Positions 9,190 through 48,611 of a stretch of DNA of 64,000 nt are shown piece after piece. The DNA comes from Candidatus Krumholzibacteriia bacterium (GTDB lineage: Bacteria > Krumholzibacteriota > Krumholzibacteriia > LZORAL124-64-63), in assembly GCA_030592845.1 (NCBI GenBank), contig JAUVII010000001.1:2392-66391 (forward strand). Direction: 5' to 3'. Position numbers and translations under genes: made by a program. Position 1 is the first letter of the stretch; each line of letters opens with the position of its first letter. A model generated the notes under the pieces. That model did not search any database and was not told where the DNA came from. It saw only the letters and a program-made list of their open reading frames with translations.

Positions 9190-9249
9190 CCCTGATTCCG
9201 GTATCTTTCAATCCGATTGCAATTTATTCAACAGAAGCAAATTACAGCA

Positions 9250-11885: not shown

Positions 11886-12463
11886 AACCTCGACCTCTCG
11901 TCAGATTTCAACCGGGCACGCCGCAGCAGAACGATGATCATGAGAGTCATGCCCGCCAACAGAAGAAGCCCCGACTTGAAGTCCGAGCCACCGGCCGCCG
12001 GTCGGCGATAACGGATCATGGCGCCGCGGATCTCCAGTTCCCCACCGGTCATCCGCAACTCGATCAAGCCGTCGGCCAAGACAAGAGGTTCCGATACCGG
12101 GAATATCCCATCCTGGAAAAGCAGCTGCCCACTGGAACCGGAACCTTCCAGAAATTCGGTACAGGCAAACCCGATGTCCCGTCTGCCGAAATCCTCGACC
12201 GGAAAGGAAGCGGGAATGATGAGGAGACCCTCTTCCCATCTCAAGGTCCTGAAGCCGGGGATGGCGTCGGTTTCCCAAACAAACCCGGAAACCGAATCCC
12301 TGACGGCTTCGATAACCACATAACCCTGCTGGCCCAGGCGCTGGTTTTGATCGGGCTGCCCCTGAGCATGGCCGCAGGGAACAAACAGTACCAGGCAAAC
12401 CAACCCACCCAACCAGCCGCATGGCCGTAAACGGTTTATCAAATCATGAATCGGGGTCAACAT
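11882..12463 (-). CDS. hypothetical exported protein with C-terminal TM anchor
   Basis: ATG at 12463. Signal-like RLRPCGWLGGLVCLVLFVPCGHAQG. C-terminal hydrophobic segment LLLLAGMTLMIIVLL followed by RRARLK. 4-bp overlap with the ligase gene. Confidence 0.5.
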   Translation of the reverse strand: MLTPIHDLINRLRPCGWLGGLVCLVLFVPCGHAQGQPDQNQRLGQQGYVVIEAVRDSVSGFVWETDAIPGFRTLRWEEGLLIIPASFPVEDFGRRDIGFACTEFLEGSGSSGQLLFQDGIFPVSEPLVLADGLIELRMTGGELEIRGAMIRYRRPAAGGSDFKSGLLLLAGMTLMIIVLLRRARLKSDERSRL

Positions 12464-13308
12464 TTAGCCCGGCCCGCAATCATGGCCCCCACCACCCGGC
12501 ACCACAGGGAATCCTCCTGGCCGGCCCTGGAAAAACCGGCCGCCAGATTATCCTCCCCCGCCACCTGGTGGACCCCCACGGGGATCCCGTCGCAGGATTT
12601 TTCCGCCAACCTGACGATGCGCGCCAGATCGCTCGAATCGTACCGAAGGGCAGCAATAGTGCAGATTTCATCGAGCCAACCGGGCTGACCGGCGGACGAC
12701 CAGGCATTGGGGAACAACAGGATTTCAATACGGTCGGGCCTGACCACTTCGGCCAGCCGGCCCAGGTAATAGTTTGGTCCGAATTGTCCGGCTTCATCCT
12801 CCTGCAGGCACCAGACCAGACCGCCGGAACCGTTGCCGGGAAGAAGTCCTGCAGTCCGAACTGCCGCCAGTGATTCCAGGTGGGCCATTTCTGTCCTGCC
12901 TACACACCCCAGGTGATTCCACTGAATTCCCCGGGCCGGGGCCGCCTCCGGCTGGGCGGCGGAATTCCGGCCGCGCTTTTCCGCGGCAATGGTCCAGGTG
13001 TTCCGGTGGTCCCCATCCTCCCCTGCAAAAACCCGACCGTGGCCGCCCTCACTGATGAGAAATGTGCCGGCGGACCAACGAATCCGGTTGTCCTCCACGA
13101 GGGTGGAAGATCCCGATGAACCGAGAGCCAATCCAGCCGCCGCAAACGCGGAAATGGCCGCGCCACCCGGCGCGGCCACGGCGCATTGGCAAATATCCCG
13201 GGTGGAATCCCCCACAATTCCGGGACGACTTTCCTCAAGGAAAAGATGAGCTATGGATGAAATATGGTGGGGCCGTTTGGGAACGGCCCCGGAATCGGTT
13301 CGCGCCAT
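12457..13308 (-). CDS. hypothetical protein
   Basis: Co-directional with the cluster. GGAGAA RBS 8 nt upstream of ATG (MARTDSG...). No recognised motif. Competing plus-strand ORFs are antisense in a high-GC region. Confidence 0.4.
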   Translation of the reverse strand: MARTDSGAVPKRPHHISSIAHLFLEESRPGIVGDSTRDICQCAVAAPGGAAISAFAAAGLALGSSGSSTLVEDNRIRWSAGTFLISEGGHGRVFAGEDGDHRNTWTIAAEKRGRNSAAQPEAAPARGIQWNHLGCVGRTEMAHLESLAAVRTAGLLPGNGSGGLVWCLQEDEAGQFGPNYYLGRLAEVVRPDRIEILLFPNAWSSAGQPGWLDEICTIAALRYDSSDLARIVRLAEKSCDGIPVGVHQVAGEDNLAAGFSRAGQEDSLWCRVVGAMIAGRAKC

Positions 13309-13396
13309 GATCGTGTATTCTCCTGACAGTCCTCCACGGACTGTCACTGCTGGTCTTCACCCCGAAACGCGTCCGCCTCCATGGCGAATTAACCGG

Positions 13397-14470
13397 TCAG
13401 GTGACGACAACCAAGCTGTTGGCTCCGCCGAACTCATTGGGTACCGTCCGGCTGTTGTGGGGATCCGGCAGCCAGGAACCGTCGACAATGAAACGGTACT
13501 CGTGCTGGCCATGGGCAAGATCCAGATGACATTCCCACATGCCGTCCTCGCGCTTGCTCAGGGGCAGCCCCTTGGCGGACCAGTCACAGAACGATCCGGT
13601 GATTCTCACTGTTCGGGCCCGGGGGAAATCCGCTTCGAAACGAACTCCGGCCTCGGAAACGGCCGGCCCATGCAGGAGAGCTGTCCAGTGATCCAGTGCA
13701 ACCACTTCCAGGGCCACTTCCTGGTCGATCAGTTCCCGGGCAAGTTGCCTGAAATCGAAGGCGGCACGGGATTCCGGATCAAGCTTCGCTACGGGAATTC
13801 CCGCCCCCGCCGCCTCCTTGACCTTCACGGTATGATGGATGACGGTGTCCAGGAGGTCGCCGTCGTACAATTCCTCCAACTCCTCCATGACCTTCCTGAC
13901 AAAGAGGGGCCGGGTGTCGAAATTCGACATCAGGATGTGGGGAATGACATCGTGGCCCTTCTTTTCCCGCAGAACCGACAGGGTTTCCCGCATCTTGCGA
14001 ACAGCCTGCAGGCTGTAACCGCTGGGATCCACGGGAATGATGACCTCGCCGCAGGCCAACAGGGCATTGAAGGTCAGCAGGCTCACGCTGGGAGGGCAGT
14101 CGATCAGGATGTAATCGTAGGGCAGCGAACTGCGGCGAAGGTTGTTCCGCAGGCGCATCTCCTTTTCCGGCTCCCGGGCCAGGGTCATTTCCACACCACT
14201 GAGTTCGATGCCGGCCGGAACCAGGTGCAAACCGGGGCCGGCTTCCAGGAAGGCGTCCTCGACCAGGATGTCCGAGGTCAGGAACAGATCATGGGTGCTG
14301 AGGGTGAAATCCCGTTCGTGGAAACCGCAGGCCAATGTGGCGTGGCCCTGGGGATCGTTGTCGATGAGAAGGACTTTTTTTCCGATTTGGGCCAGAGTTG
14401 AGGCAAGGTTGGTGGCGGTTGTCGTTTTACCGCATCCGCCTTTCTGGTTGGCCAGAGCAACGACTCTCAT
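13397..14470 (-). CDS. ParA/MinD-family P-loop ATPase fused to a C-terminal AMPK-beta-type glycogen-binding domain (CBM48)
   Basis: N-terminus MRVVALANQKGGCGKTTTATNLA (deviant Walker A) and IDCPPS. C-terminal about 85 aa RTVRITGSFCDWSAKGLPLSKREDGMWECHLDLAHGQHEYRFIVDGSWLPDPHN...GGANSLVVV. This matches the AMPK beta GBD pattern GSFNNWS..PL....F...L.LP.GEH.YKF.VDG.W..DP. Confidence 0.8.
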   Translation of the reverse strand: MRVVALANQKGGCGKTTTATNLASTLAQIGKKVLLIDNDPQGHATLACGFHERDFTLSTHDLFLTSDILVEDAFLEAGPGLHLVPAGIELSGVEMTLAREPEKEMRLRNNLRRSSLPYDYILIDCPPSVSLLTFNALLACGEVIIPVDPSGYSLQAVRKMRETLSVLREKKGHDVIPHILMSNFDTRPLFVRKVMEELEELYDGDLLDTVIHHTVKVKEAAGAGIPVAKLDPESRAAFDFRQLARELIDQEVALEVVALDHWTALLHGPAVSEAGVRFEADFPRARTVRITGSFCDWSAKGLPLSKREDGMWECHLDLAHGQHEYRFIVDGSWLPDPHNSRTVPNEFGGANSLVVVT

Positions 14471-15337: not shown

Positions 15338-17158
15338 ATGTCGAAAATGTTCAAGTTTCTGCGTTCCCAGGCCAAGATCTTCTACTGGGTGATTGCCGCC
15401 ACCTTTATCCTGTTCCTTTTTCTCGGCGGAATGACCGGCCGTGGCTGCCAGGCCCCGGGACAAAAACAATATGAGGCCGGAGTGATCGGCACCGTGAACG
15501 GCGCCAAAATCACCGCCCAGCAATACGATTACTCGGTGCGGCAGCAGAGGGCCCAACTGAGCCAGCAGGCCCAGGGCAGGGAACTCAACGCCAACCAGTT
15601 CGCCGCGGCCGACCAGCAGGCCTGGGATTCCCTGATCCAGGCCGCCATCTTCGCCGAGGCCATTGATGAGATGGGAATCACCGTATCCGACGAAGAGGTT
15701 CTTTCGGTATTCGAAAACTCCCCTCCGGCGGAGTTGCTGGCCCGTTACCGGGACGAGAACGGAAATGTCGACATCAACCGCTATTACGCGGATCTTCAGA
15801 ATCCCGAGGTCGACTGGACCCAGCAGGAAGCCTACATCCGGGCCATCCTGCCCTGGCAGAAGCTGACCGAAACGGTAGCCGCCGGAGCCGTGGTGACCGA
15901 TGAAGAAATCCGTGAAGAATACATCCGCCAGACCGGCAAAGCGGTCGCGGAATACATCGGTGTCCTTTTTACCGACCTCGAGGGTGAATTCGAACCCACG
16001 GAAAATGAAATCAGCGAATGGTACCTGGCCCATCCGGATGATTACCAGGCCCCGGCCAAGGCCAATTGCCAGGTGGTCAAATTCGCCAAGGAACCCAGTG
16101 CCGAGGACAACCAGGAAGTCCTCGATTTCCTGCTGGAAGTCCGCGAAGAGATTCTTTCGGGAAACAAGTCCTTTGAAGAAGCAGCCAGCGAGTACAGCGA
16201 AGATGCCTCGACAGCCCCCTCGGGCGGGGAGTTGGGCACCTTCAACCGCTCCCGCATGGTGGCCGCGTTCACCGAAGTGGCCTTCAAACTTGAGGTGGGC
16301 GACCTGAGCGAACCCGTCAAGACCAAGTTCGGATACCACCTGATCGAGGTCCTGGAGCAGTCCATCGATCAGGATACCGGTGAGGTTTACGAGATCACCG
16401 CCCGGCACATCCTGGCCAAGGTCACCCCCGGTCCGGAAACCCTGGACCTTTTGCGCGACTCCGCGGATGACTTCCGCGGCCGCGTGGACGGCGCGACATT
16501 CGTCTCCACCGCGGAAGCCGAGGCCCATGACCTGATGACGCCTCCGGAATTTGCAGAGGGCCGGGACATTCCCGGACTGGCTCTTTCCCTGGCCGGATCC
16601 AACTGGGTTTTCTCCACCACATCCGGCCAGATCAGCCGTCTGTACGAGAACCGGGACAATATCTATATCGTCATGGCCGGCGAAATTACTCCCGTTGGCC
16701 TGGCACCCCTGGAAGAGGTCACCAGCCGCGTGTCATTGGCCGCCAAGAAGGACAAGCAGCTTCAGGCCGCGCAGGCCAAACTCAGCCCCGCCGCGGGCGA
16801 GATCCAGATGGGCCTGACCATGGCCGAAGTCGCCGAAGCCGGTGGATTCCTCCACGCGGTCTCAGACACCTTCACGGTCAACGGTAATGTTCAAAACGTT
16901 GGTTACGGAACCGAATTCAACAAGGCCACCATCGAGGGCACAGTGGGGACCCTCATTCCCGAGGTGGAAACCCTGCGGGGAATATTTGCCCTGACCCCCT
17001 TGTGGATCGCCCCCTTCGACCAGGCCGATTTCGATGCGCGCAGGCCGGGTATTCAGGGGGCCCTGCTGTCGCGGGCCCAGAACCTGGCGGTCGAGGAATG
17101 GTACACCGCCCGTTTGGAAGAGGCGGAAATTGAGGATTATCGCTACTACCGGCCCTAG
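15338..17158 (+). CDS. ppiD: periplasmic chaperone PpiD-like (N-terminal TM anchor, SurA-N-like region, PpiC/parvulin PPIase domain)
   Basis: Start chosen at the ATG at 15338 (MSKMFKFLRSQAKIFYWVIAATFILFLFLGG). The TAAGG RBS is directly upstream. Parvulin motif SGGELGTFNRSRMVAAFTEVAFKLEVGDLSEPVKTKFGYHLIEV. Confidence 0.8.
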   Translation: MSKMFKFLRSQAKIFYWVIAATFILFLFLGGMTGRGCQAPGQKQYEAGVIGTVNGAKITAQQYDYSVRQQRAQLSQQAQGRELNANQFAAADQQAWDSLIQAAIFAEAIDEMGITVSDEEVLSVFENSPPAELLARYRDENGNVDINRYYADLQNPEVDWTQQEAYIRAILPWQKLTETVAAGAVVTDEEIREEYIRQTGKAVAEYIGVLFTDLEGEFEPTENEISEWYLAHPDDYQAPAKANCQVVKFAKEPSAEDNQEVLDFLLEVREEILSGNKSFEEAASEYSEDASTAPSGGELGTFNRSRMVAAFTEVAFKLEVGDLSEPVKTKFGYHLIEVLEQSIDQDTGEVYEITARHILAKVTPGPETLDLLRDSADDFRGRVDGATFVSTAEAEAHDLMTPPEFAEGRDIPGLALSLAGSNWVFSTTSGQISRLYENRDNIYIVMAGEITPVGLAPLEEVTSRVSLAAKKDKQLQAAQAKLSPAAGEIQMGLTMAEVAEAGGFLHAVSDTFTVNGNVQNVGYGTEFNKATIEGTVGTLIPEVETLRGIFALTPLWIAPFDQADFDARRPGIQGALLSRAQNLAVEEWYTARLEEAEIEDYRYYRP

Positions 17159-17265
17159 CAAGCTGTTGGCGAACCAAGGGAAAAATACGGGATCCCGGGA
17201 CCTTCAGGTTCCGGGATCCTTTTCAAAAAGCGGCCAACACCCTGGATTGTCGGGATTTCCGGGAG

Positions 17266-17697
17266 TCAATCATCCCCAAAAGGATTGAGAGGCTTCTTCT
17301 TCCGGAACTCCTTCAGATCCTCCCCCATCTGATCCATTTTCTTTTGCTGCTTGTCCCGGTGTTCGCCGGAATCGAAAAGCCTGGACATCTTTTCGGCCTC
17401 CTCGGATTTGCGCCGGTCGAATTCCCGCAGATCTTCGGATATCTCAGGACCCCCTTCCTCGGGCAGACCTTCGACGGCAAGATGGTCCCGGACTTCCGCA
17501 TGGGTTTCATAGGCGCTTTTGACCAGGTCGATGGCGCCCAGATCCTCCAGGAGAACCAGATGAAGCCTCACGGAACTGGCGGACTGCTGCAACAGGTCGG
17601 CCAGTTCCTCGGGACTTGGCGCCCTGCCGGTCAGGTGACCCAGAACCCTGATCCCGGCCAGCAGCAACTGGGCTTCATCCCTGGTCAGATTGATCAT
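17266..17697 (-). CDS. hypothetical small protein with acidic/lysine-rich C-terminal tail
   Basis: 143 aa. Overlaps the mrfB-like stop by 23 bp. No recognised motif. Confidence 0.45.
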   Translation of the reverse strand: MINLTRDEAQLLLAGIRVLGHLTGRAPSPEELADLLQQSASSVRLHLVLLEDLGAIDLVKSAYETHAEVRDHLAVEGLPEEGGPEISEDLREFDRRKSEEAEKMSRLFDSGEHRDKQQKKMDQMGEDLKEFRKKKPLNPFGDD

Positions 17698-18910
17698 TAT
17701 CCCATCTCCGATCCGCCCCTGAAGGGCGGTCCATCATTTTCAGCAATCGACTAACCCTTTGATCCTCGCCCGATTTCCGGGCGTGGTCAAGGGCCTTCGG
17801 CAAATCCACCAGGCGGTGTTCATACAGAATGGCCGCTTCCCGATGCAGCCAGGGAGTGTCAACGTCCGCGGCAAGACCGTCCAGAATGATTTTCTCCACC
17901 AGGACCCAATCCCCTCCCCTTTTCAGGATGCGCACCGCGTCTCCCAGAAAACGCGGATCCCCCAGGCCATGGTCCTTGCGCCGGGGAGCCGTGTCCACGG
18001 CCGCCTCCAGGCAGGCGATGGACAGATGTGTATCGCGCCGCCTTTCGCAGATCCGGCCCATGGCCCAACCTTCCAGCCAATTCATTTCCGCAGTTGGTTT
18101 CGAACCGCTTTCCACCAAACGCGCGGCCTCTATGACCCGCAGAAAAAGGGAGCTCATCCCCAACATGTCCCGATGATTGTGGATCATGACCTCGGGCAGC
18201 AGGCCGGGCCGGCCGGTCGTCAGGAAATCGAACCAGGTTTGAGGGATGCAGGAGCCATCGATATCACCCGCCCCCCTATCCAGACCGCAAACTTCCCTTT
18301 CAAGTGTCTGTTGACGGCAATTTTCCAGACGGTTGCCCCACAAACGCCGGGAAGGCACCAGCAGATCCCAGCCCGCCAGGGATCCGAAGGGATCTTCAAG
18401 ACGGTTCAACCGCGCACGCGTCCTAAGCAAAGGAAGATCATAGGAAGCGCCGTTGAAGGTGACCACAACCCTGAATCCGGAAGCCAGATCGGCCAATTCA
18501 ATCAACAGGGCGGCCTCATGCCCGGGGTCGGGAAGAAAATACTGCCGGGTGTGCAGGCCGCCGCTCCCCCACCAGGATACTCCCACCAGAAATGGGATCG
18601 TCCCGGTGCCTCCAGCCAGACCGGTGGTTTCCGTGTCCATGAACAGGATTTCGCCGGGATCCTGGACAGGCTCCTTAAACCCGGTAAAAAACTCGTGCAA
18701 GCCTGGCAGGGGGAGATAAGGGGCGGGCAGGACGTCGCAATGAGATCGTGTCCAAAACGGACCGTGGGATCCCGTGTGTTCCTCCAGCCCCATTTCAAGG
18801 AGGGATCCCGACCGATCCCCGGAAACATCCTCGCCAGGTCGGTTTGCGGGCATGGAAGCGGGACGGCGGGAAAGCCTGTCCAACTGGGCCAGTCTCTTTT
18901 TCAGATCCAT
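17675..18910 (-). CDS. mrfB: YprB/MrfB-like RNase-H-fold 3'-5' exonuclease
   Basis: DEDD exo I motif ILFMDTETTGLAGGTGTIPFLVGVSW. ATG (MDLKKRLAQL) overlaps the helicase stop (ATGA). TPR-like C-terminal half. Confidence 0.7.
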   Translation of the reverse strand: MDLKKRLAQLDRLSRRPASMPANRPGEDVSGDRSGSLLEMGLEEHTGSHGPFWTRSHCDVLPAPYLPLPGLHEFFTGFKEPVQDPGEILFMDTETTGLAGGTGTIPFLVGVSWWGSGGLHTRQYFLPDPGHEAALLIELADLASGFRVVVTFNGASYDLPLLRTRARLNRLEDPFGSLAGWDLLVPSRRLWGNRLENCRQQTLEREVCGLDRGAGDIDGSCIPQTWFDFLTTGRPGLLPEVMIHNHRDMLGMSSLFLRVIEAARLVESGSKPTAEMNWLEGWAMGRICERRRDTHLSIACLEAAVDTAPRRKDHGLGDPRFLGDAVRILKRGGDWVLVEKIILDGLAADVDTPWLHREAAILYEHRLVDLPKALDHARKSGEDQRVSRLLKMMDRPSGADRRWDNDQSDQG

Positions 18911-29605: not shown

Positions 29606-29728
29606 TCCGGATCTGGGGTGGGCACCAAAAAGCCCCGAACCTGATCCGGGACCCGCCTCAAGGTAATAGGGGGTCCCACCATCTGTCAATTACAGTCCTG
29701 GCGATGCCGGGTCTCACGATTCAATAAT

Positions 29729-30526
29729 TTACCCCGCTGGCCGGATGTTCAATCTGAGCAGAGACTCCAGAACCCCGCCGCCCACCGCTAGGGCCTTGTC
29801 ACTCACCAGATCCGGGTCAATGGCGGCGCCCCGGGGATCCACATCTCCAACCTTGGTTCCCGCGGAAAGTTCCGCCGTCGGATGGACCAGTCCACGAATC
29901 CTCCCGGTCAGGCCACTGACCACCGGAATTCCCGAGACATGGCCCAGAATCATCCCTTCCTCCACCAAATCGCCAATTTCATATAGGGATGTAAACTGCC
30001 CCGCCGCGGGAGCTTTGAGAACCCTCAGTCCCGATTGCCCGCCCACCAGACCGGCAACCCCGGTATTCGGCGCGGCCGCCCCCTGGGAAATGACCTCCCC
30101 CAACCTGGCTTCGCGATGGGTTTCCACGATCAGGTCGGCATCACGGCCACAAAAAAAGCCGGGACCCAGTCCGATTACCGGAATTTTCCCTGTGGGCAGG
30201 GGATCAGGGGCCTTTTTGGTCATGCGGGCGTCAACGACCGCACCGGCGCCCAGACGCGACAGGACAGACCCACGGTCATCCACCACCACGGACACCAGGC
30301 CGGGCCGGTAACGGCACGCGGCCGGTTCGACCAGTTCACCGACGATGCCTTCGACCAGGTGGCGGCCGGTATAGACCGCCTCGCTGAAAGACACCCGCCG
30401 CCGAACGGCCAACGGTCTGGCCGTTTCAGCCAGCACCACCCGGTAACCTGACCTCACCAGCCGGACCGCCACCCCCGAAGCGAGTTCGCCGGCCCCCTGG
30501 ATCCAGATGCAACCTTCAGTATTCAC
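29729..30526 (-). CDS. yqeB: selenium-dependent molybdenum hydroxylase system protein YqeB
   Basis: N-terminus IQGAGELASGVAVRLVRSGYRVVLAE (YqeB-type Rossmann-like start). About 265 aa. Translationally coupled (4-bp overlap) to the XdhC-like gene. Confidence 0.7.
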   Translation of the reverse strand: MNTEGCIWIQGAGELASGVAVRLVRSGYRVVLAETARPLAVRRRVSFSEAVYTGRHLVEGIVGELVEPAACRYRPGLVSVVVDDRGSVLSRLGAGAVVDARMTKKAPDPLPTGKIPVIGLGPGFFCGRDADLIVETHREARLGEVISQGAAAPNTGVAGLVGGQSGLRVLKAPAAGQFTSLYEIGDLVEEGMILGHVSGIPVVSGLTGRIRGLVHPTAELSAGTKVGDVDPRGAAIDPDLVSDKALAVGGGVLESLLRLNIRPAG

Positions 30527-31389
30527 TTTCTTCTCCGGTGCAGACGAACACCCAGCGGAAGGCCTTCATCATCTTTCAGGTGGGGCACCCCGCGCAGGAC
30601 GGCCAGTGCTTCGGCCAAGACGCTCAGGGCGATTTCTCCCGGAGTTTCCGCCCCGATATCCAGCCCGACCGGGTACTGCATGCGGGCGATCCTTTCGGCC
30701 GCTCGCTCGTCACCGGCAAACCTCTTGCGCAACATGGCTGCTTTGGTCCGGCTGGCCAGGGCCCCGAGGAATGCGAATTCGCGGCCGTCATCGCGTTCGG
30801 CTGCCAGAACGGCTTCCAGGTAATCTCCATCCAGTTCATGATTGCGGGCGGCGATCAGCATGGCTCCGCCGGTTGGAACATCCAATTGGGAAAAGAGGTT
30901 TTCGGCGCCTGATTCCAGCAGGCGGACTTGCGGCAAGCCTTCAAGATCCGAGAGCAGTCCGGGGCGGTCATCCACCAGCGTGAAACGGAAGGGAAGACTG
31001 CGGCCCAACTCGACCAGGGCCCGGCCCACATGCCCGGCCCCGATGACGATAAAACTCCGGGCGCGGGTGACGGGCTCGAGAAAAACTTCCATATGGCCAC
31101 CGCAAACACCCACATCTCCAGCCAGGTTCAGGGGCAGGCAGCGGGCCCTTCCATCCTGAAAAACAGCCTCCGCCTCTTCAATGACCCTCGCTTCGGCCCG
31201 ACCACCGCCCACGCTGCCGACCACCGAACCGTCCGGCAGGATGATCATCTTGCTTCCCTCATGGCGGGGAGTGGACAGATGGGTGCGGATCACCGTGGCC
31301 AGCACACCGCTTTGGCCCTGCTCCACCATTTCCGTCAAACGGCGGTAGATGCCGCCTTCGTCAACCGTCAAGCGTTGATCATCATTCAT
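30523..31389 (-). CDS. xdhC: XdhC/CoxI-family molybdenum cofactor insertion/sulfuration accessory protein
   Basis: LATVIRTHLSTPRHEGSKMIILPDGSVVGSVGGG and a Rossmann-like IVIGAGHVGRAL segment. Start at MNDDQRL, 8-nt overlap with the upstream gene. Confidence 0.75.
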   Translation of the reverse strand: MNDDQRLTVDEGGIYRRLTEMVEQGQSGVLATVIRTHLSTPRHEGSKMIILPDGSVVGSVGGGRAEARVIEEAEAVFQDGRARCLPLNLAGDVGVCGGHMEVFLEPVTRARSFIVIGAGHVGRALVELGRSLPFRFTLVDDRPGLLSDLEGLPQVRLLESGAENLFSQLDVPTGGAMLIAARNHELDGDYLEAVLAAERDDGREFAFLGALASRTKAAMLRKRFAGDERAAERIARMQYPVGLDIGAETPGEIALSVLAEALAVLRGVPHLKDDEGLPLGVRLHRRRK

Positions 31390-32053
31390 GATGTCCACCT
31401 TTTTCGCGCCAGGGCCCGGCGGGATCGAAATCCCCGGGCCGGTCGAAATCCCTGTCGATTCCGGAATCTTCCACTTCAACTTCCACCGGTGCCGCCAGCC
31501 ACATCCCGGTGACCCCATGGGTGAGAAAATCCCGCAACGGACCATTATGAAAGGAAGCCCTGCGATTCAATTCCTCAAGCACATCGTAGGGCAGGATGAC
31601 GGGATGTCCAGGAATTCCAACCCGGACGGGACGGATGATCCGTGTGGGGTGCCGGCGCGAATTTTCCGCCAGCAAATCAAGGGTCTCCGGGGTCACTAGG
31701 GGCAGGTCCACCGGATGGGCCCAGAAATGCGAACAGTCCACTCCCGCCTTGGCGCAGGACCTCCAGGACATCAACAATGTCAGCGCCGTATCACCACCGG
31801 AGGCCTGGGGCAGAACGCGGCATTCTTTAGACCCGGGCAATTCCCTGGCAAGGGCATCGCTGAACCCGGCCAGTGCCAGCACGTCCACGGGCATATCCCG
31901 GTGAAGGTAAAGGTCGGCTATGAGGCGCACGAAAGCAGGTCCCTGGGCGGAAAACTTCAACAACCCCTTAGGGCTGCCCATGCGAAAGCTCAGGCCCCGG
32001 GCCATGATGACCGCGCGGTCGGACCGAACAGCTTTCCCGTTGTCGGAAATCAC
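31382..32053 (-). CDS. MobA/MocA-like molybdenum cofactor nucleotidyltransferase
   Basis: AVIMARGLSFRMGSPKGLL N-terminal motif. Confidence 0.7.
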   Translation of the reverse strand: MISDNGKAVRSDRAVIMARGLSFRMGSPKGLLKFSAQGPAFVRLIADLYLHRDMPVDVLALAGFSDALARELPGSKECRVLPQASGGDTALTLLMSWRSCAKAGVDCSHFWAHPVDLPLVTPETLDLLAENSRRHPTRIIRPVRVGIPGHPVILPYDVLEELNRRASFHNGPLRDFLTHGVTGMWLAAPVEVEVEDSGIDRDFDRPGDFDPAGPWREKGGHHE

Positions 32054-32829
32054 GGCTCTCCGTCCTGTTCGATACAGGCCGTGCGAATGGCCGGCGGATC
32101 AGAGGCCAGATCACAGAACAATGTCAGGGGGAGCCGTTCGTGACCCATGGCCCGGCCGACAAAATCAAAAAGGCCGATACTGTCGGACTGCTCCTCCATC
32201 CCCGTCAGGGCCAAAACGCAGGGAATGTCGGCGGGCACCCGGGACAGGTACCCTCCCGGTTCCCGCAAAAGGGAAAGGGAGTGGTCCCATTCCCAGACCG
32301 TCCATGACTGGAGTCCGTCCAGCGGCGGCCATGCCCGGCGGCCAAAACGGTGCAGAACATCTTCGGTTTTGGATCCGACCGCGGAAGTTCCCATCACCAC
32401 GATCCCCAGGGAGGTGCGGCCCGGCCACACCGGTTCCCCCTCACGGTGGAGTTTCAAGGGATACTTGGCGGCCCCATCGACCTCGGCCAAGACGATCCTG
32501 TCGGGCAGGGTCCCACCCAGATCGTCCACTTCCTCCGGGGTAAGGCCGGCCCATTTCCCATCGGGCCGATGGCCGCCATGGAGAAAAAACGCATGGGGAA
32601 GATCGGCCCGGTCCCTGGAGGCCAAGCCCTGAAGATCCATGTCCTCCAGGTCAGGCAAGGGCTCACTCCGGGTGGTGGTCGTCAATACCACCGGAACGGA
32701 AATTTCCCGGTAAAAATCAGCCAGGACGCGCATGAGAGAGGTCTTGCCACCGGATCCCATCAGGGCAATGACATGGCCCGCCTCACGGGGAAGAAACCGG
32801 TGCCAGGGATCGACGAAGCCGAAATTCAC
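32050..32829 (-). CDS. yqeC: putative selenium-dependent hydroxylase accessory protein YqeC (P-loop)
   Basis: GHVIALMGSGGKTSLMRVLA. Size about 259 aa. 4-bp overlaps on both sides. Confidence 0.7.
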   Translation of the reverse strand: MNFGFVDPWHRFLPREAGHVIALMGSGGKTSLMRVLADFYREISVPVVLTTTTRSEPLPDLEDMDLQGLASRDRADLPHAFFLHGGHRPDGKWAGLTPEEVDDLGGTLPDRIVLAEVDGAAKYPLKLHREGEPVWPGRTSLGIVVMGTSAVGSKTEDVLHRFGRRAWPPLDGLQSWTVWEWDHSLSLLREPGGYLSRVPADIPCVLALTGMEEQSDSIGLFDFVGRAMGHERLPLTLFCDLASDPPAIRTACIEQDGEP

Positions 32830-33971
32830 GGGGTGCCTTTCCGGTCGGTGGTCAGCAGGGAATCGTACCAGTCGAGCAATCTGTCCATCATCAAGGCGCG
32901 TGTATACCGTTCCTCAAAACGCAGCCGGCCGGCGGCACCCATTTCCCGGGCTTTTCCGCTGTCATTCATCAATCCGCCAAGGGCCTGGCTCAAGGCCCCG
33001 GAATCGGAGGGCGGCACCAGCAGGCAGGTCCGGCCTGGCTCCCCCACTTCACGGACTCCGGTGGGAAGATCCGAGGCAACCACCGGAACACCTGCGGCCA
33101 TGGCTTCCAGTTGAACCAGACCGAAGGTTTCGCTGGCGTTCACGCTGGGCAGGACCAGGGCGCGGGCGTGGGCCATATGTTCGGCCACCTGGGCGGCATC
33201 CATGGGCCCGGCAAAATGGATCCGGCCTTCCATCCCCAGTTTTTCAACAAGAGCCGACAGTGAGGCCAGCAAAGGTCCTTCCCCGACAATGACAGCTTCG
33301 GCACCGGGCAGATCGGCCATCGCCTCCAGAAAAATCTCCAGTCCTTTATAGGGCACCAACCGCCCCACGAAAAGGAAAGGACCGTCGAGAGAAGGTTCCA
33401 CGTCCATCCAGGGAACGGATTCGATCCCGAAGGGGATCACCCCCACCTTCTCCTTCCAGGGAGCAAGGACCGGGGAGTTGGCGGCCAGAGTGGCCGAAGA
33501 CACCGAAATCCCGGCGGCGCGGCCCAGGCATACCTTGACGATTGGCTGGACCAGCAACCGTCCCACCTTTTGCCTGGTGATGTCGGCGTGGTACCAGACC
33601 GCCAGTGGCGGCAGTTCGCAGGAACGGACGGCGCCCAGCGCGAGCCATGACGCCGCAGCCAGGGGATTGGGCAGGTGCAGATGCACCAGGTCCGGCTTCA
33701 ACCGCGCGGCTTCACGCCGGATAAGTCCCGGAAGGGTCAGGGTCAGGGGCTGGGAATTGAGGTGTCCGTAAACCGAAGCCCTTACCAGACGCCCCCTCCG
33801 GCCCGTGTCCGGGCCCACCACCTCTTCGATGATTTCCTGGGGTCCGTCCCCGGCTGTCAGGACGGTAACCTCGCAGTTCCGGTCCAATAGCCCTTCGGCC
33901 AGATTGCGCAGAACGGTTTCCATCCCCCCCAGATAAGGCGGGTAGTATTTCCCGATGTGTAGAATTCTCAT
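32826..33971 (-). CDS. glycosyltransferase family 1 (GT4-type)
   Basis: MRILHIGKYYPPYLGGMETV N-terminus. ETFGLVQLEAMAAGVPVVASD motif. Confidence 0.85.
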   Translation of the reverse strand: MRILHIGKYYPPYLGGMETVLRNLAEGLLDRNCEVTVLTAGDGPQEIIEEVVGPDTGRRGRLVRASVYGHLNSQPLTLTLPGLIRREAARLKPDLVHLHLPNPLAAASWLALGAVRSCELPPLAVWYHADITRQKVGRLLVQPIVKVCLGRAAGISVSSATLAANSPVLAPWKEKVGVIPFGIESVPWMDVEPSLDGPFLFVGRLVPYKGLEIFLEAMADLPGAEAVIVGEGPLLASLSALVEKLGMEGRIHFAGPMDAAQVAEHMAHARALVLPSVNASETFGLVQLEAMAAGVPVVASDLPTGVREVGEPGRTCLLVPPSDSGALSQALGGLMNDSGKAREMGAAGRLRFEERYTRALMMDRLLDWYDSLLTTDRKGTP

Positions 33972-33995
33972 GCGCGAATTCTAGGGCATGCCAAG

Positions 33996-34853
33996 GTGGC
34001 GGTCAAAGCCCTTCGCCCCCGAACCTTGTTGGACAATCATTTTCCATTTAAACTGATGGTGACAGGAGACCGGGATGCCGCAGACCAGGCGGCCTGGAAT
34101 CCGGTCTCAGGGAGGAGGCGAAAGGGGATCCTCGTGCCGGAAAATATCACCGAAAAACTTATCCAACGCCAAATCAACCACTGGAACCGGTTCCGGGAAT
34201 TTCTCCAGGACGAACAGGACGTCCAACCGCCCAGTCCGGGACCCGTCCTGACCGTGTCGCGAATGGCCGGCGCCGGTGGACGCACCCTCGCTGTCGGACT
34301 GGCGGATCGTCTGAACCTCACCCTTCAGGACCATTCCCTGGTCGGCGAAATAGCCAGTGACCGGAATCTGGAAAAATCAGTGGTCGCCCAGCTGGACGAA
34401 AACGCCATCAGCCAGGCTGAACTCTGGATCAAAGGTGTCCTGAACCGGCGGATCTTCATGAAGGACGAATACCACACTTCCCTGGTCAACATCGTGACCA
34501 ACCTCGCCGCGGCCGGCGACGTCGTATTTCTCGGACGGGGCGCCCACCTGATTCTGGGAGACAAGGCGACCCTGCGAATCCGGGTGGTCGCCTCCCGGGC
34601 CACACGTCTGACAAGGATCATGAAACGGACGGGCCTGACCCGGCCGGAGGCCCGCGCGCTTCTGGACGAAACCGACCGCAAACGCGAGGATTTTATCCGC
34701 AAGGTATTCAAAGCCGAACCGGATCATCCGGGAAATTTCGATCTCGTCCTGAATTCGGACCGCATGAAACCCGAGTGCATTCTGGAAACCGTTACCCTGG
34801 CCCTGCTCGGTGCGCGAACCGGCGGCCGGGCCAAAATGCCCAGCCGGGTTTAA
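33996..34853 (+). CDS. cytidylate kinase-like family (AAA/P-loop NMP kinase-like) protein
   Basis: LTVSRMAGAGGRTLAVGLADRLNLTLQDHSLVGEIA pattern of the cytidylate_kin2 family. True start may be internal (e.g. MVTGDRD). Confidence 0.55.
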   Translation: MAVKALRPRTLLDNHFPFKLMVTGDRDAADQAAWNPVSGRRRKGILVPENITEKLIQRQINHWNRFREFLQDEQDVQPPSPGPVLTVSRMAGAGGRTLAVGLADRLNLTLQDHSLVGEIASDRNLEKSVVAQLDENAISQAELWIKGVLNRRIFMKDEYHTSLVNIVTNLAAAGDVVFLGRGAHLILGDKATLRIRVVASRATRLTRIMKRTGLTRPEARALLDETDRKREDFIRKVFKAEPDHPGNFDLVLNSDRMKPECILETVTLALLGARTGGRAKMPSRV

Positions 34854-34916: not shown

Positions 34917-34958
34917 TCGGCGCGAAAATTGCCGGGTCGAACGAGCAACCGCTTTCGG

Positions 34959-36653
<1,695 letters not shown>

Positions 36654-36679
36654 TCATGCAAATTCTTGGGTTCCGGTAA

Positions 36680-36970
36680 CTAGCCCAGGATGGCCAGCAC
36701 ATCGCTCTCGCGCAGGATCAGGAAGTCGTCCCCGCCCACGTTCACTTCGGTGCCGGAATACTTTCCGTACAGAACGATGTCGCCCTTCTTGACTTCGGGG
36801 GCGATCCGTTCGCCGTTATCACTGGTGGTACCGGGACCCACGGCCACGATTTTACCCTGCTGGGGCTTTTCCTTGGCGGTATCGGGGATGATGATCCCGC
36901 CCTTCATGGTCTCCTGCTCCATGGGAGCCACGATGACACGGTCGGCCAGAGGCTTGATATTGAGAGCCAT
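36680..36970 (-). CDS. groS: co-chaperonin GroES (Cpn10)
   Basis: [56 protein letters not shown]. Confidence 0.97.
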
Positions 36971-37141: not shown

Positions 37142-37929
37142 TCAGTTTGACAGGAAACCTGGGGTATTTGACAGGATCACCCCGCCACGCAAGGTCCAGT
37201 GGGGGTCGTGATAACTGCCGGGTATGTCAAGATGAAGCCCCAGACCGCCTGTTACGACCACCGGCACCTCACCATAGCGGGCCTTCAGGCCGGAAACCAC
37301 CGCATGAACCCCTCCGAGTCCCGCGTGCCAGGCCCCGGCAGCCATGGCTGCCCCGGTATCCCGACCCACATCCCAGGACGCGGAACGGAAAGGCACAGGA
37401 TTCAGCCGGGCGGCAACTTCACCGATCCGACGGGCCGCCAACGCCATTCCCGGAGCAATCATCCCGCCCCTGAAAACGCCATCCAGCAGTAGATCGAATG
37501 TGGTGGCGGTGCCGGCGTCCACGACCAGGGCGCTCTTAAGACCGGAAAACGCGGCGGCGGCCATGTTGCACAGCCGGTCGGGACCCACCTGCGAGATATC
37601 GGCAATATCATGGGTAAAGGGAAGATCGCGGGTGTGGTCCACCACTTCCAGATCCGGCTCACCGGCCAGCAGGTCCACGATCCCCGGAATGACGGAGATC
37701 ATGACCACGCGGGGGGACCCGGATTTTCGGACAAGTTCCCGGAACGACTCCCGAAACCCGTCATTGCCCCCGGGACCGGAGGGATGGGAAAGCTCGACCA
37801 GTTCCCGCAACGGGACAGGAGGCGCCAGCTCGGATCCGCCCTTGGCCGACAAAACGGGCAGCTGTCCGTCACCTTCCCAGGCCGCACATTTAACGCGGGT
37901 GTTTCCGGCATCAACTATCAGGGCTTGCA
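37142..37929 (-). CDS. coaX: type III pantothenate kinase
   Basis: MQALIVDAGNTRVK N-terminus. ALVVDAGTATTFD. GGM. C-terminal VVTGGL. Confidence 0.85.
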
Positions 37930-38876
37930 TCTCTGTTCCTGTCGTCTTCGGCGGCCTTGCCCTCCCGGGAATCATCCGCCCTTCCCAAAACCGCTTCGAG
38001 ATGGACGTCCCCGGCGCTGAAGTCCGTGATCCGCCCCTGCTCGTCCTCCAAAAGCAGGGCGCCGTGATCATCGATGCCCGCGGCCCTTCCGCGAAACTTC
38101 CGCCCTCCGGAAACGAGGTGAACCTGCTGGCCCAGCAGGCAATCAAGATAGGAAAGCGCGGGGCGATAAGCCGTCCACCCGCTTTCCTGAAAGGAATCCA
38201 GTTCGTTTTCCACCCGCGAGATGATCCGCCCCCCTACTTCTCCGGGACGAAGCAGGCGATCTGTTTCGATCAGAGTGCTGGTAGCCGTCCCCTGGAGATG
38301 GGAAGGGAAACCGCTCCGGGAAGTGCCCAGGTTCAGACCCAGACCCGCCACGACCATCTTATCCGGACCGGAGCGGGTGTTTTCCAGCAGGATCCCTCCC
38401 AGTTTGCGGCTACCCACCATAATGTCGTTGGGCCATTTCAGGCGGGCGTCCACCAGGAAATCTTCACGCAGAACAAGAACGGACAGCAACCCCAACCAGA
38501 CAGAAAAGCCCTGGGAAAAGGAGGCCCGGTGCGGCGGAACAACCACCGACAGGTGCAGACCGCCGCAATCCACCCAGGCGCGTCCCTGCCGTCCCTTGCC
38601 CGCGGTTTGCAGGCGGGCCACCACGACGGTTCCCGGACTGGGATCGATGACCGGATCCAGCATGGTCCGCTGCCGCGCCTTCCAACCCCATCCGTCCCAC
38701 TTGCAAATCCGCCCCTGGGCAGGCCCGCCGCGGCCCCGCAAAAATTCGCTGGTGCTGCCCACTTCATCCAACAGGTACAGAAGACCGCTGTCGCGAAGAA
38801 ACCGGGGTCCAACCTGGAACACATCGATTCCGAACCAGTCCCTGGCGATGGGCTTGTTGCGAAAAAGCCGTTTCAT
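37911..38876 (-). CDS. birA: biotin--[acetyl-CoA-carboxylase] ligase
   Basis: QTAGKGRQGRAW (GRGRxGRxW-like) and KWPNDI motifs. Confidence 0.85.
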   Translation of the reverse strand: MKRLFRNKPIARDWFGIDVFQVGPRFLRDSGLLYLLDEVGSTSEFLRGRGGPAQGRICKWDGWGWKARQRTMLDPVIDPSPGTVVVARLQTAGKGRQGRAWVDCGGLHLSVVVPPHRASFSQGFSVWLGLLSVLVLREDFLVDARLKWPNDIMVGSRKLGGILLENTRSGPDKMVVAGLGLNLGTSRSGFPSHLQGTATSTLIETDRLLRPGEVGGRIISRVENELDSFQESGWTAYRPALSYLDCLLGQQVHLVSGGRKFRGRAAGIDDHGALLLEDEQGRITDFSAGDVHLEAVLGRADDSREGKAAEDDRNRDASPDS

Positions 38877-39775
38877 CGGGATTCCAGGTCAAGGCCCAGG
38901 TCCAGGGCGCGGACCGAATGGGTCAACCGCCCCACCGAAGCCGCGTCCACACCCGTCCGCGCGTAACCGCTGATCGTGTCCAGATTGATGTTGCCGGATG
39001 ATTCCAGAAGCGTCACCGACCGGACGGAGTCCCTTTTTTCCACCGCGGTGGCGGTGTCGGCCACGCTGAAGTTGTCCAGCAGGATCCAATCCACCTTCAG
39101 TGGAAGAACCTGGGCCAATTGTTCCAGGGTATCCACTTCAATTTCGATGGCCAGTTCCGGAAATTCCCGACGGGACCGGGCCACCATCTGTTCTATCTGG
39201 CCGTTGCCCGCGGCCCAGTGGTTGTCCTTGACCATGACCCGGTCGTACAGCCCCATCCTGTGGTTTTTACCTCCGCCACAGAGAACCGCGTACTTGGACA
39301 GGGCCCGGTAGCCGGGCAGTGTTTTTCGGGTGTCCAGGACCTGACAGGCCGTTCCCTTCACCGCCGCAACATATTGCGCTGTCAAGGAAGCGATACCCCC
39401 GAGAAACTGGAGAAAATTCAGGGCCGTGCGTTCACCGGTCAGAATGGAAGAGACCGGGCCGGACAGACAGGCCACGACCGAGCCCGGTTGGACAGGGGTC
39501 CCATCGGTCAGGACGCGTTCCACCTTCACGGCGGGATCCAGTTCCCCGTACAGGAGATCCAAAAGCGGCAAGCCGGCCACAACCCCATCCTCGCGGGCAA
39601 CCAGGTTGCCGGCGGAGGTCTCGGACCCACTTACGGATATTTGGGTGGACACGTCACCGCTGCCCACATCTTCGACCAGTGCCAGCCGGATGAATTCCCG
39701 CAGCCCTTCACCCGCCGGAAATCCGCTCTCCAGGTCGTGTCCCATTTCCATCCCTCGCTGGTTGTCCGCTATCAT
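38873..39775 (-). CDS. nadC: nicotinate-nucleotide diphosphorylase (carboxylating) / quinolinate phosphoribosyltransferase
   Basis: LDTRKTLPGYR, VMVKDNH, LLDNF motifs. ATGA overlap with the uvrB stop. Confidence 0.85.
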   Translation of the reverse strand: MIADNQRGMEMGHDLESGFPAGEGLREFIRLALVEDVGSGDVSTQISVSGSETSAGNLVAREDGVVAGLPLLDLLYGELDPAVKVERVLTDGTPVQPGSVVACLSGPVSSILTGERTALNFLQFLGGIASLTAQYVAAVKGTACQVLDTRKTLPGYRALSKYAVLCGGGKNHRMGLYDRVMVKDNHWAAGNGQIEQMVARSRREFPELAIEIEVDTLEQLAQVLPLKVDWILLDNFSVADTATAVEKRDSVRSVTLLESSGNINLDTISGYARTGVDAASVGRLTHSVRALDLGLDLESR

Positions 39776-46055: not shown

Positions 46056-48611
46056 ATGCGGAACCTGGCCGTTTATCAAGAGACTATCTTTGAACAGGTC
46101 ACCCGCCTGGCGGGCCTCTTTCTGTTGGCCCCCGTATTGCTTGTGCTGACCCTTCCAGTCCTCCTCCACATCAACCAAAAACCCGATTACGGCTTTTCGG
46201 TCCGCAGGCAGGAAGTGGTCGAAGTCGTTCCCGCGGGTCCGGCGGACATGGCGGGATTGCGCAAGGGCGACGCCATCCTGGTCATTGACGGGCGATACAT
46301 CAACAACATGCCCGACTACTTCGCCGCCCTGGCGGGCCGTTATGATCTGACCCCGCTGGCCGTCGAGATCAGCCGGGGATCGACAAAACGGGTCCTGGTC
46401 ATTTCTCCGACCCAGCCGCCCCAGGGGGTGATGATCCGCAACTATGGGGTCTGGGTATCCGGATTCGCCTTCCTGATGATCGGTTTCTGGGTTCTTTTGC
46501 GGCGCCGAGACCCCGTGGCCCGCAATTTTTTCTCCCTGTGTTTTATCTTCGCCTTTTTCCTGCTCGACATTCCCGACCACGCCAGCGTCCACTACATGAC
46601 CGCCAAGGAATTGATCCGTTATCTTTTCCAACTGTTGCTGCCCGCCTATTTCCTGCGGTTCTTTCTCCGGTTCCCCAGTCCCCGCAGCAATCTGGCACGC
46701 GAAAAAATTCAGCTCAGGATGCTGCTTGTTCCGGGTTGGGTGCTCTTCGGAATCATCGCCTGGATGTTCTATCTCAATCCGGCGCCCGGAGGACTCCTGG
46801 AAGCCACTCTCGAAATCGTTACCCTGATCTATCTGTTGGGATACTTTCTGGCCGGGCTGGTCATTTTCGCCCGCCGGGTCATGAGACGCGACCGCCCCAT
46901 CCAGCAGACAAAACTCAAGGTCGTCCTGTGGGGACTGATCTTCGGCCTGGCCCCCTTCATCGCGGGTATGCTTCTGGAAACCCTTTCCCCGGGCGCCTCG
47001 CTCCCCCAATTGCAGTATCTGGCCTTTTCCCTCCTTCTGGTTCCGATCAGTTTCGGCCTGGCCATTTTGCGGTACGGCGCTTTGGACAGGGCCTTCGTGG
47101 TCCGCGCCAGCCTTATATACGGACTGCTCACCATCCTGGTGCTCCTGATTTATTTCGTGATCGTGCTGGGCCTTGGTGAATTCCTGGCGAAGCTCTTCAA
47201 GGTCGAAACCTATTGGGTCCTTCTGCTGGTCATGGCGGGCAGCAGCCTGGCCATCCTGCCGTTGCGCCGCTGGATCCAGGGCACCATTGATACGGCATTT
47301 TATCCCGCCCGCCGCGCCAATCGCCGGACCATGACATCCCTGGCCGACAGGTTGACCGGCCTGATCGACCCCGGAGATGTCATCCAGACCCTTCTGACCA
47401 GTCTCGCCGATCTTTTCCGTCCCGAGTCCCTCGTCCTGTTTCTCTCACCGGGCGACGGCCAGGGTCATTTCAAGGCCCACCTTCCCGATGCGGATGCGGC
47501 TGATTCGATGGCCTACGACATGGATGGCGAAGACGACTCCGCCCCCACGGAAGATTATCCCCACCTGGACCAGGGCAGTGGACTGGCCATTCTGCTGAAA
47601 CGGATCCGCCGCCCGGTCTTTACCGAAGAACTGGAAGACCTCCTTTTTTCGGGAGATACGGACCACGCCTCCCTCAAGGTCCTGACCCGCATCAGGGCGG
47701 CCCTGATCATCCCGATGATTGGCGGAAATCGTCTGGTGGGATTCCTGGCCTTCGGGCCCAAGAGCAACGGAGCCCTCTACAGCCAGGAGGACCTGGCCAA
47801 CCTGCGGGCCCTGGGAATCCAGGCCGCCTCCCTTATCGAAAGCCGCCTGCTCTACCGGGAAAGCCTGAGCCGCAAACGCCTGGAAACCGAACTCGAAGTG
47901 GCGCGGGATATCCAGGGCCGACTGCTTCCCACCGGTCCGCTGGATACCGATTATTTCAGCATCTGTGGACGCAACGAACCCTGCCTCATGGTGGGGGGCG
48001 ACTATTTCGACTACTTCCCCCTCGAGGACGGCAGCCTGGGCTTCGCCATTGCCGACGTGTCCGGCAAGGGAATTCCCGCGGCCCTGATGATGACCTCTCT
48101 GGTGGTGGCCTTCCGCAGGGAGGCCAAGGCGGGCATGGGCCCAAGGGCAGTCATGGACCGCCTCAATCCCGTGGTTGCCTCGCTGGTGTCGGCGGGAAGC
48201 TTCATCTGCCTGTTTTTCGGGATCTGGAACCCGGCGACCGGGGTGATCCACTACTGCAATGCCGGCATGGATCCCCCGGTCCTGTTCCGGCCCCGCGCCT
48301 TCTATCGTCAAAAGCTGAGAAGGGGCGGTCCCGTCCTGGGCGTGGAGCCCAAACGTCACTATCGGGAGGGGGCGCTGGCCCTGGAACCGGGCGACCGCCT
48401 GTTCATGTTCACCGACGGTTTGACCGAGGAACAAAATCCCCTGGGAGATTTCTTCGATACGGACCGTTTGCTGCAACTGGTGGCCGATAACCTGGAATCT
48501 TCCCCTTTGCGCTTGATTGATAAGATTTTTTCCGCCGTCAATGCTTTTGGCGGCGAAGAGAAAACAGATGACAAGACCGCAATTATATTGGAAATAAAGA
48601 ACTTACAATAA
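46056..48611 (+). CDS. membrane-bound PP2C/SpoIIE-family serine phosphatase with N-terminal PDZ domain, multi-TM sensor region and GAF domain (RsbU-like)
   Basis: PDZ GPADMAGLRKGDAILVIDG. About 8 TM helices. GAF-like segment. C-terminal PP2C catalytic region with several conserved acidic residues. Confidence 0.8.
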   Translation: MRNLAVYQETIFEQVTRLAGLFLLAPVLLVLTLPVLLHINQKPDYGFSVRRQEVVEVVPAGPADMAGLRKGDAILVIDGRYINNMPDYFAALAGRYDLTPLAVEISRGSTKRVLVISPTQPPQGVMIRNYGVWVSGFAFLMIGFWVLLRRRDPVARNFFSLCFIFAFFLLDIPDHASVHYMTAKELIRYLFQLLLPAYFLRFFLRFPSPRSNLAREKIQLRMLLVPGWVLFGIIAWMFYLNPAPGGLLEATLEIVTLIYLLGYFLAGLVIFARRVMRRDRPIQQTKLKVVLWGLIFGLAPFIAGMLLETLSPGASLPQLQYLAFSLLLVPISFGLAILRYGALDRAFVVRASLIYGLLTILVLLIYFVIVLGLGEFLAKLFKVETYWVLLLVMAGSSLAILPLRRWIQGTIDTAFYPARRANRRTMTSLADRLTGLIDPGDVIQTLLTSLADLFRPESLVLFLSPGDGQGHFKAHLPDADAADSMAYDMDGEDDSAPTEDYPHLDQGSGLAILLKRIRRPVFTEELEDLLFSGDTDHASLKVLTRIRAALIIPMIGGNRLVGFLAFGPKSNGALYSQEDLANLRALGIQAASLIESRLLYRESLSRKRLETELEVARDIQGRLLPTGPLDTDYFSICGRNEPCLMVGGDYFDYFPLEDGSLGFAIADVSGKGIPAALMMTSLVVAFRREAKAGMGPRAVMDRLNPVVASLVSAGSFICLFFGIWNPATGVIHYCNAGMDPPVLFRPRAFYRQKLRRGGPVLGVEPKRHYREGALALEPGDRLFMFTDGLTEEQNPLGDFFDTDRLLQLVADNLESSPLRLIDKIFSAVNAFGGEEKTDDKTAIILEIKNLQ

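Follow-up and report, generated by a model that had tools for sequence, protein, structure and literature searches.

What does a set of selenium-cofactor maturation genes serve when neither selD nor a molybdenum hydroxylase is encoded near it, and why should a glycosyltransferase head its operon? This question is raised by a five-gene block at positions 29729-33971 of a 64,000-nucleotide stretch of DNA, hereafter the window, from a Candidatus Krumholzibacteriia bacterium (assembly GCA_030592845.1, contig JAUVII010000001.1, positions 2,392 to 66,391). On the minus strand, five co-directional open reading frames (ORFs) follow one another head to tail and encode, in order, a glycosyltransferase (GT), YqeC, a MobA/MocA-like nucleotidyltransferase, an XdhC-like molybdenum cofactor (Moco) chaperone, and YqeB. 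Among the routes by which cells use selenium, the delivery of the labile ligand to molybdenum hydroxylases is the one least understood, and the mechanism of YqeB and YqeC is still unestablished. We find that the YqeB and YqeC of the window are bona fide members of both marker families, and that the block represents a known accessory system, found here in an uncultured lineage together with a lineage-specific operon partner. The reading that we favor, and hold to be probable, is that of a self-contained operon maturing the molybdopterin cytosine dinucleotide (MCD)-type cofactor for xanthine-oxidase-family hydroxylases whose genes lie elsewhere in the genome, an operon vertically inherited in a Krumholzibacteria-like clade.

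The cofactor genes and their products

YqeB (29729-30526, minus strand, 265 residues) scores 257.2 bits on the NCBIfam equivalog model TIGR03309, above its cutoff of 220. YqeC (32050-32829, minus strand, 259 residues), encoded in the same operon and possessing a Walker-A-like GSGGKTS motif and the Pfam YqeC domain, scores 98.3 bits on TIGR03172, above the cutoff of 73.05. A preliminary description, made from the sequence without database searches, had named both genes and proposed scoring them against these models; both exceed the trusted cutoffs, and the names stand. The other two cofactor proteins are recognized at the domain level. The XdhC-like protein (30523-31389, minus strand, 288 residues) exceeds the gathering scores of Pfam XdhC_CoxI (80.3 bits) and XdhC_C (103.6 bits) but falls under the equivalog cutoffs of TIGR02964 (120.4 versus 161.6) and of the aldehyde oxidoreductase (AOR) maturation factor NF045664 (164.5 versus 350). 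Its start was set by homology to the 288-residue calls in relatives, the mechanical ORF reaching 31545. For the MocA-like protein (31382-32053, minus strand, 223 residues) the only curated model passed is Pfam NTP_transf_3, and its best NCBIfam matches are far under their cutoffs (TIGR03310 MocA, 55 bits versus 186.45; NF045665, 70 versus 315).

An AlphaFold2 model of YqeB (predicted local distance difference test score 88.6) gave no whole-protein structural match in the PDB with Foldseek. The sole part matched was the last ~70 residues, which resemble barrel-sandwich domains of the biotin carboxyl carrier protein type, in agreement with the AccB similarity noted for Clostridioides difficile YqeB (PMC11448449). 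Sequence searches of the PDB with YqeB and YqeC returned zero matches.

Alignment with the Escherichia coli proteins accounts for the separate XdhC-like and YqeB genes. E. coli YqeB is a protein of 541 residues (positions 16615-18240 of our E. coli reference locus, L091); the window XdhC-like protein aligns to its residues 3-255 with 35% identity and the window YqeB to residues 273-526 with 41% identity. The two GTGA-overlapping genes of the window thus represent a split form of the fused E. coli YqeB, and because together they equal the fused protein, the four cofactor genes are the counterpart of E. coli yqeB-yqeC-mocA. The window YqeC is 30% identical to E. coli YqeC, and the MocA-like protein is 25.5% identical to E. 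coli MocA (E 3e-8).

The first gene of the block, encoding the GT (32826-33971, minus strand, 381 residues), overlaps yqeC by four base pairs (GTGA), as the preliminary description had it. Read directly in gene order, the four junctions are GTGA, GTGA, ATGAATGA, and GTGA. The description of the block as an operon of 4-bp overlaps accordingly holds for three of the junctions but has to be amended for the MocA/XdhC junction, where the overlap is 8 bp. A consensus scan found a sigma-70-like promoter match, TTGACC-17-TAGAAT, at 33978-34006 on the minus strand (10 of 12 positions; a consensus match only), and a pattern scan found a terminator-like hairpin with a T-run at 29626-29655 on the minus strand, ~75 nt past the yqeB stop codon. 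The hairpin is located upstream of the probable true start of the neighboring TPR gene, as judged by 392-residue calls in relatives; terminator-like matches in the region are not enriched over shuffled sequence, which makes the hairpin weak evidence. Both consensus matches fit one five-gene transcription unit. Since the -10-like TAGAAT ends 6 nt from the ATG of the GT gene and no Shine-Dalgarno-like sequence is present there (33972-34006, minus strand), the mRNA may be leaderless or near-leaderless at this first gene.

Conservation of the block and its missing partners

One genome per GTDB species was scanned with the window YqeB, which gave 80 loci, 34 from the clade and 46 from an outgroup, that were annotated by local tblastn; the inspected stretch was ~20 kb per relative genome, against 64 kb here. 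The nearest YqeB homologs (57-89% identity) include metagenome-assembled genomes (MAGs) named Candidatus Krumholzibacteria at NCBI. The 34 clade loci encode a YqeB 51-80% identical to that of the window and come from genomes titled Krumholzibacteriia or Krumholzibacteriota, "uncultured Fibrobacteraceae", or simply "bacterium". Of the clade loci, 31 are long enough to reveal the block, and in every one of them GT, YqeC, MocA, XdhC, and YqeB are contiguous, which answers the query raised at the outset as to whether the GT-yqeC linkage recurs in relatives. The GT orthologs directly upstream of yqeC are 43-84% identical to that of the window. Within the clade GT and yqeC are separated by -4 to +59 bp; the stop codon of the one overlaps the start codon of the other in 26 of 40 loci, and the gaps between genes of the block do not exceed 59 bp in these 40.

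The block is embedded in a long conserved array. On one side of it lie genes for UvrB, QRPTase, biotin ligase, type III PanK, GroES/EL, and a cytidylate-kinase-like protein; on the other side are genes for a TPR protein, a class I/II aminotransferase, FolB, HPPK, dNK, PanB, PanC, an IspD-like transferase, TatA, and a DEAD helicase. The flanks from UvrB to GroES/EL and from the TPR gene to PanC are the same down to 51% YqeB identity, and block and array recur together in six of six context look-ups of relatives, including contigs of 3.84 and 1.77 Mb. Cofactor genes abound in the array (21200-41800 of the window), namely QRPTase for NAD, biotin-protein ligase, PanK, FolB, HPPK, PanB, and PanC, interleaved with GroES/EL, UvrB, dNK, and TatA in an order kept across the clade (loci L004 and L006-L010 among others). 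Some variation occurs in the flanks: the cytidylate-kinase-like or TPR gene is sometimes missing, or insertions follow GroEL, but the five genes stay together. The cytidylate-kinase-like gene, which is divergent from the GT gene, was considered as a CTP-related partner of the MocA-like protein and rejected, as it is missing from that position in many clade loci.

The outgroup presents a different picture. Its 46 loci, from Eisenbacteria, Chloroflexota, Bacillota, Desulfobacterota, and Treponema, encode a YqeB 43-50% identical to that of the window, and none has a window-type GT adjoining the cassette. At least one hydroxylase subunit is encoded within 10 kb in 13 of the 46, the molybdenum-binding subunit in seven of these, and genes of the purine (2,8-dioxopurine) pathway are found in nine; the pathway genes that outgroup loci often carry are those for XdhA/B/C, YgfK, SsnA, YgeW, and YqeA. 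One locus has a SelD-like match, which is weak. Fused and split forms of the XdhC-like and TIGR03309 proteins both occur (for example L064 and L081 versus L048 and L070). None of the 34 clade loci encodes a hydroxylase subunit or SelD homolog within 10 kb. What distinguishes the clade is narrower than the preliminary description proposed, namely that the cassette is never near a hydroxylase, over 34 loci and 10 kb, that it resides in a conserved housekeeping array, and that it always follows a GT4 gene.

In the window itself the partner genes were sought across the full 64 kb. Genes were called by codon-position GC, and essentially all credible ORFs were scanned against Pfam. No AIRS/SelD, Ald_Xan_dh_C, Fer2_2, FAD_binding_5, or TusA domain was found, and six-frame tblastn with E. 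coli SelD, XdhA, XdhB, the iron-sulfur (FeS) protein XdhC, XdhD, YgfK, YgfM, and SsnA gave no match at E<=1e-5. A scan for the CPxP motif of TusA/SirA-like proteins matched non-coding frames only, and ARAGORN found no tRNA, and so no selenocysteine tRNA, in the window. The earlier observation that no selD, SirA-like gene, or hydroxylase lies within ~30 kb on either side is borne out by these searches. The extended hydroxylase and purine-catabolism locus, which is frequent but not obligatory for the selenium-cofactor trait, is not the setting here.

An ordinary split locus, with a canonical selD and hydroxylase cluster lying just past the ends of the window, could produce the same picture. An 80,107-bp NCBI contig encodes a protein with 100% identity to the window GT, so that ~16 kb of the source contig extends beyond the window. 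We nevertheless consider this explanation very improbable, because the ~30 kb on each side contain housekeeping, envelope, and regulatory genes only, such genes are likewise missing within 10 kb in relatives whose flanks are rearranged, and at a distance of ~30 kb a split operon would have no regulatory meaning.

The lack of neighboring partners is less anomalous than it might seem. That selD and a hydroxylase are the normal neighbors of yqeB and yqeC was an overstatement of the preliminary description, and the anomaly that it implied finds no support in the outgroup counts or in the literature. The yqeB, yqeC, and selD genes of C. difficile all lie apart from one another (Johnstone & Self, PMC11448449), and yqeB, like SelD, is required for purine use but yqeC is dispensable (PMC11448449). 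E. coli YqeB is a stand-alone XdhC homolog proposed to serve several enzymes (Neumann & Leimkühler, PMC2997495), and selD usually lies far from TIGR03309 genes (PMC2276186). We found nothing specific in the literature on Krumholzibacteria together with molybdenum, selenium, or xanthine dehydrogenase. A hydroxylase encoded elsewhere is the default explanation and the one that we favor; nothing that we found supports the other suggestion of the preliminary description, a non-canonical target.

Could the cassette operate without selenium? In such a scenario the clade would lack selD, and the cassette would mature an ordinary sulfurated (Mo=S) cytosine dinucleotide cofactor, with YqeB and YqeC acting as general accessory factors. 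SelD is indeed seen neither in the window nor in the 34 clade loci, and the cassette is surrounded by constitutive housekeeping genes and is not part of a catabolic island. The link of YqeB and YqeC to selenium rests on phylogenetic profiles and one genetic study (PMC2276186, PMC11448449), and there exist genomes encoding close homologs of both proteins with an incomplete selenium trait, for which selenium-independent roles were allowed (Peng et al., PMC5029168). However, TIGR03309 was built as a family confined to selD-positive genomes (PMC2276186), and the window YqeB exceeds its trusted cutoff. Furthermore, the absence of selD from 64 kb carries almost no weight, since selD is normally distant from yqeB (PMC2276186). 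On balance selenium-independent use is unlikely, although it is the likeliest of the alternatives.

Several observations on the loci and the window stand apart from these questions. In five loci from Eisenbacteria and an unclassified "bacterium" MAG (L045, L048, L049, L061, and L064), YqeB precedes an XdhB-like FAD subunit, a tandem pair of YgeW-like carbamoyltransferases, and YqeA, and in L048 a class I/II aminotransferase gene lies directly upstream of MocA-XdhC-YqeB. The Eisenbacteria-type loci show the cassette in another setting, a catabolic one, in a neighboring lineage. Nine genomes titled "uncultured Fibrobacteraceae" or "Gemmatimonadales" (L009, L021, L024, L025, L028, L032, L039, L040, and L043) exhibit the full Krumholzibacteria-type synteny with a GroEL 79-92% identical to that of the window, and those NCBI taxonomic labels are probably wrong or provisional. 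The mechanical ORF list of the window ranks artifacts antisense to GroEL and to PanK/biotin ligase above real genes: the very long plus-strand ORFs at 34929-36683 (opposite GroEL) and 37344-38966 (opposite PanK/biotin ligase) were rejected as high-GC artifacts with the wrong codon-position GC pattern, and the latter gave no match in the Pfam scan. Elsewhere in the window, a 1537-residue Peptidase_C25 (gingipain-like) protein with FG-GAP repeats (979-5592, minus strand) adjoins a small protein with a FlgD-Ig domain and a type IX secretion C-terminal sorting domain (592-921, minus strand); the Peptidase_C25 and sorting-domain proteins fit an organism of the Fibrobacterota-Chlorobiota-Bacteroidota (FCB) group with type IX secretion cargo. 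An 851-residue protein with PDZ, GAF, and SpoIIE (PP2C phosphatase) domains (46056-48611, plus strand) has a regulatory architecture and is unrelated to the block.

The glycosyltransferase at the head of the operon

The GT consists of the GT-B pair Pfam Glyco_transf_4 (63.3 bits) and Glycos_transf_1 (118.5 bits). It had been labeled GT1, but the Pfam "group 1" corresponds to CAZy family GT4 and not to GT1. No NCBIfam equivalog is reached (for instance, BshA at 89.6 bits versus a cutoff of 273.7). The best full-length relative of solved structure is PimA (residues 12-358, E 3e-18). JGI annotations of GT orthologs read "rhamnosyl/mannosyltransferase" or "cell wall biosynthesis". By similarity the GT seems closest to GDP-mannose-dependent lipid or polysaccharide transferases of the PimA/WbdC type, without belonging to a specific family. 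A BshA/MshA-like enzyme was considered and rejected, the scores being far under the cutoff, and a pterin glucosyltransferase was rejected because the similarity is weak and partial. Elsewhere in the window, a separate envelope-polysaccharide cluster (7269-14470, minus strand) encodes a methyltransferase, a WecA/MraY-type Glycos_transf_4 protein, a Wzy_C O-antigen-ligase-like protein, a second GT4 enzyme 28% identical to the operon GT, and a ParA/BcsQ-like ATPase with a C-terminal glycogen-binding (AMPK1_CBM/CBM48) domain.

The constancy of the GT makes it tempting to regard it as a working part of the module, one that would attach a sugar to the pterin or dinucleotide cofactor, to a precursor, or to an accessory or target protein, and so give a lineage-specific modified cofactor or maturation step. 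The invariant GT-yqeC adjacency, the frequent stop/start overlap, the short gaps, and the integrity of the block while both flanks vary all speak for this, as does the position of the pterin genes FolB and HPPK three genes downstream of the block. There are also small-molecule glycosylating enzymes among the detectable GT4 relatives, tetrahydrobiopterin glucosyltransferase included; however, the match to its structures is weak (E 2e-9 to 2e-8), covers the C-terminal half only, and ranks under PimA, sucrose-phosphate-synthase-like, BshA, and MshA relatives. Such a GT is present at none of the 46 YqeB loci outside the clade, which means that the cassette works without it elsewhere. The 120 closest GT homologs listed are all clade orthologs with at least 50% identity, and no GT-YqeC fusion is found among them. 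A regulatory RNA shared by the genes of the block was not detected either: no Rfam family, the Moco riboswitch included, reaches its gathering score in the window, and a looser Rfam search upstream of the GT gave a sub-threshold CRISPR-repeat match only. Because the whole neighborhood is syntenic, conserved adjacency of the GT is weak evidence of shared function, and a role in the module appears quite improbable together with the failure of the GT to reach any equivalog. Most probably the GT is an enzyme of the envelope, one that came to be promoter-proximal in the clade ancestor and has no biochemical role in cofactor formation. A broader scenario, in which the cassette was rebuilt as a five-gene unit in this phylum-level lineage with the GT drawn into cofactor maturation (as a glycosylated cofactor or protein), or in which the cassette acts without selD or on a non-classical target, or both, is improbable.

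Proposed function and comparison with known systems

In our preferred model of an MCD-maturing operon with its target encoded elsewhere, family knowledge and C. difficile genetics suggest the following division of labor. The MocA-like protein would add CMP to Mo-molybdopterin, forming the cytosine dinucleotide cofactor. The XdhC-like protein would bind this cofactor, hold it during exchange of the terminal ligand, and insert it into the apo-enzyme. YqeB, normally its fused partner domain, would supply or position the selenium (or sulfur) ligand, and YqeC, a P-loop accessory protein, may be of minor or conditional importance. The target would be at least one xanthine-oxidase-family enzyme.

Three points weigh against this model. 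The exact activities of the MocA-like and XdhC-like proteins are presumed from domain-level homology, both proteins being below every curated equivalog cutoff. No target hydroxylase, selD, or Moco-biosynthesis gene was seen in any clade member over ~20 kb per genome, or in the 64 kb here. Finally, GT and yqeC remain joined, in many cases with the stop codon overlapping the start codon, while the flanks vary, and the persistence of so tight a junction through flank rearrangement makes a purely accidental GT neighbor less likely.

The YqeB/YqeC cassette can evidently be a fixed, vertically inherited housekeeping operon across an uncultured lineage, detached from catabolic islands, with a GT4 gene as constant operon partner in one clade, and the E. 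coli YqeB fusion has a counterpart as two translationally coupled genes. Comparative genomics of the selenium-cofactor trait should be cautious in expecting adjacency to selD or a hydroxylase. The locus alone leaves the mechanism no more testable than before, as the target enzyme has not been seen and the organisms have not been cultured.

The "Se-cofactor trait", or accessory system of selenium-dependent molybdenum hydroxylases (Haft & Self 2008; Zhang et al. 2008; Johnstone & Self 2024), shares with the window TIGR03309, TIGR03172, and a MocA-like gene. The trait is completed by SelD and a hydroxylase, neither of which is seen in the window or in the 34 clade loci of up to 20 kb each, and the context in the window is one of housekeeping rather than purine or nicotinate catabolism. 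With the system-specific Moco chaperones of the XdhC/PaoD type (Rhodobacter capsulatus XdhC, E. coli PaoD) the XdhC-like protein shares the XdhC_CoxI and XdhC_C pair and a presumed role in cofactor binding and insertion. It differs from them in having no co-transcribed target enzyme, in being paired with YqeB, and in scoring under the XdhC and AOR-maturation equivalog cutoffs. The GT in turn shares full-length GT-B similarity with the GDP-mannose-dependent GT4 transferases (PimA; WbdC/WbpZ-type), but it meets no curated family cutoff and heads a cofactor-maturation operon rather than belonging to an envelope-polysaccharide cluster.

The closest parallel is the yqeB-yqeC/mocA (ygfJ) cluster of E. 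coli K-12 (b2875-b2877), in which the same four units, XdhC-like, TIGR03309, YqeC, and MocA-type, are mutually adjacent, and where selD (b1764) is far away. The E. coli cluster lies within a purine-catabolism region, with xdhD ~7 kb and xdhABC ~10 kb distant, whereas no hydroxylase gene occurs within ~30 kb of the window block. In E. coli the XdhC-like and TIGR03309 units form one protein and mocA is divergently transcribed; in the window they are encoded by two genes and all genes are co-directional. The E. coli cluster has no glycosyltransferase, whereas the block in the Krumholzibacteria-like clade is headed by one.

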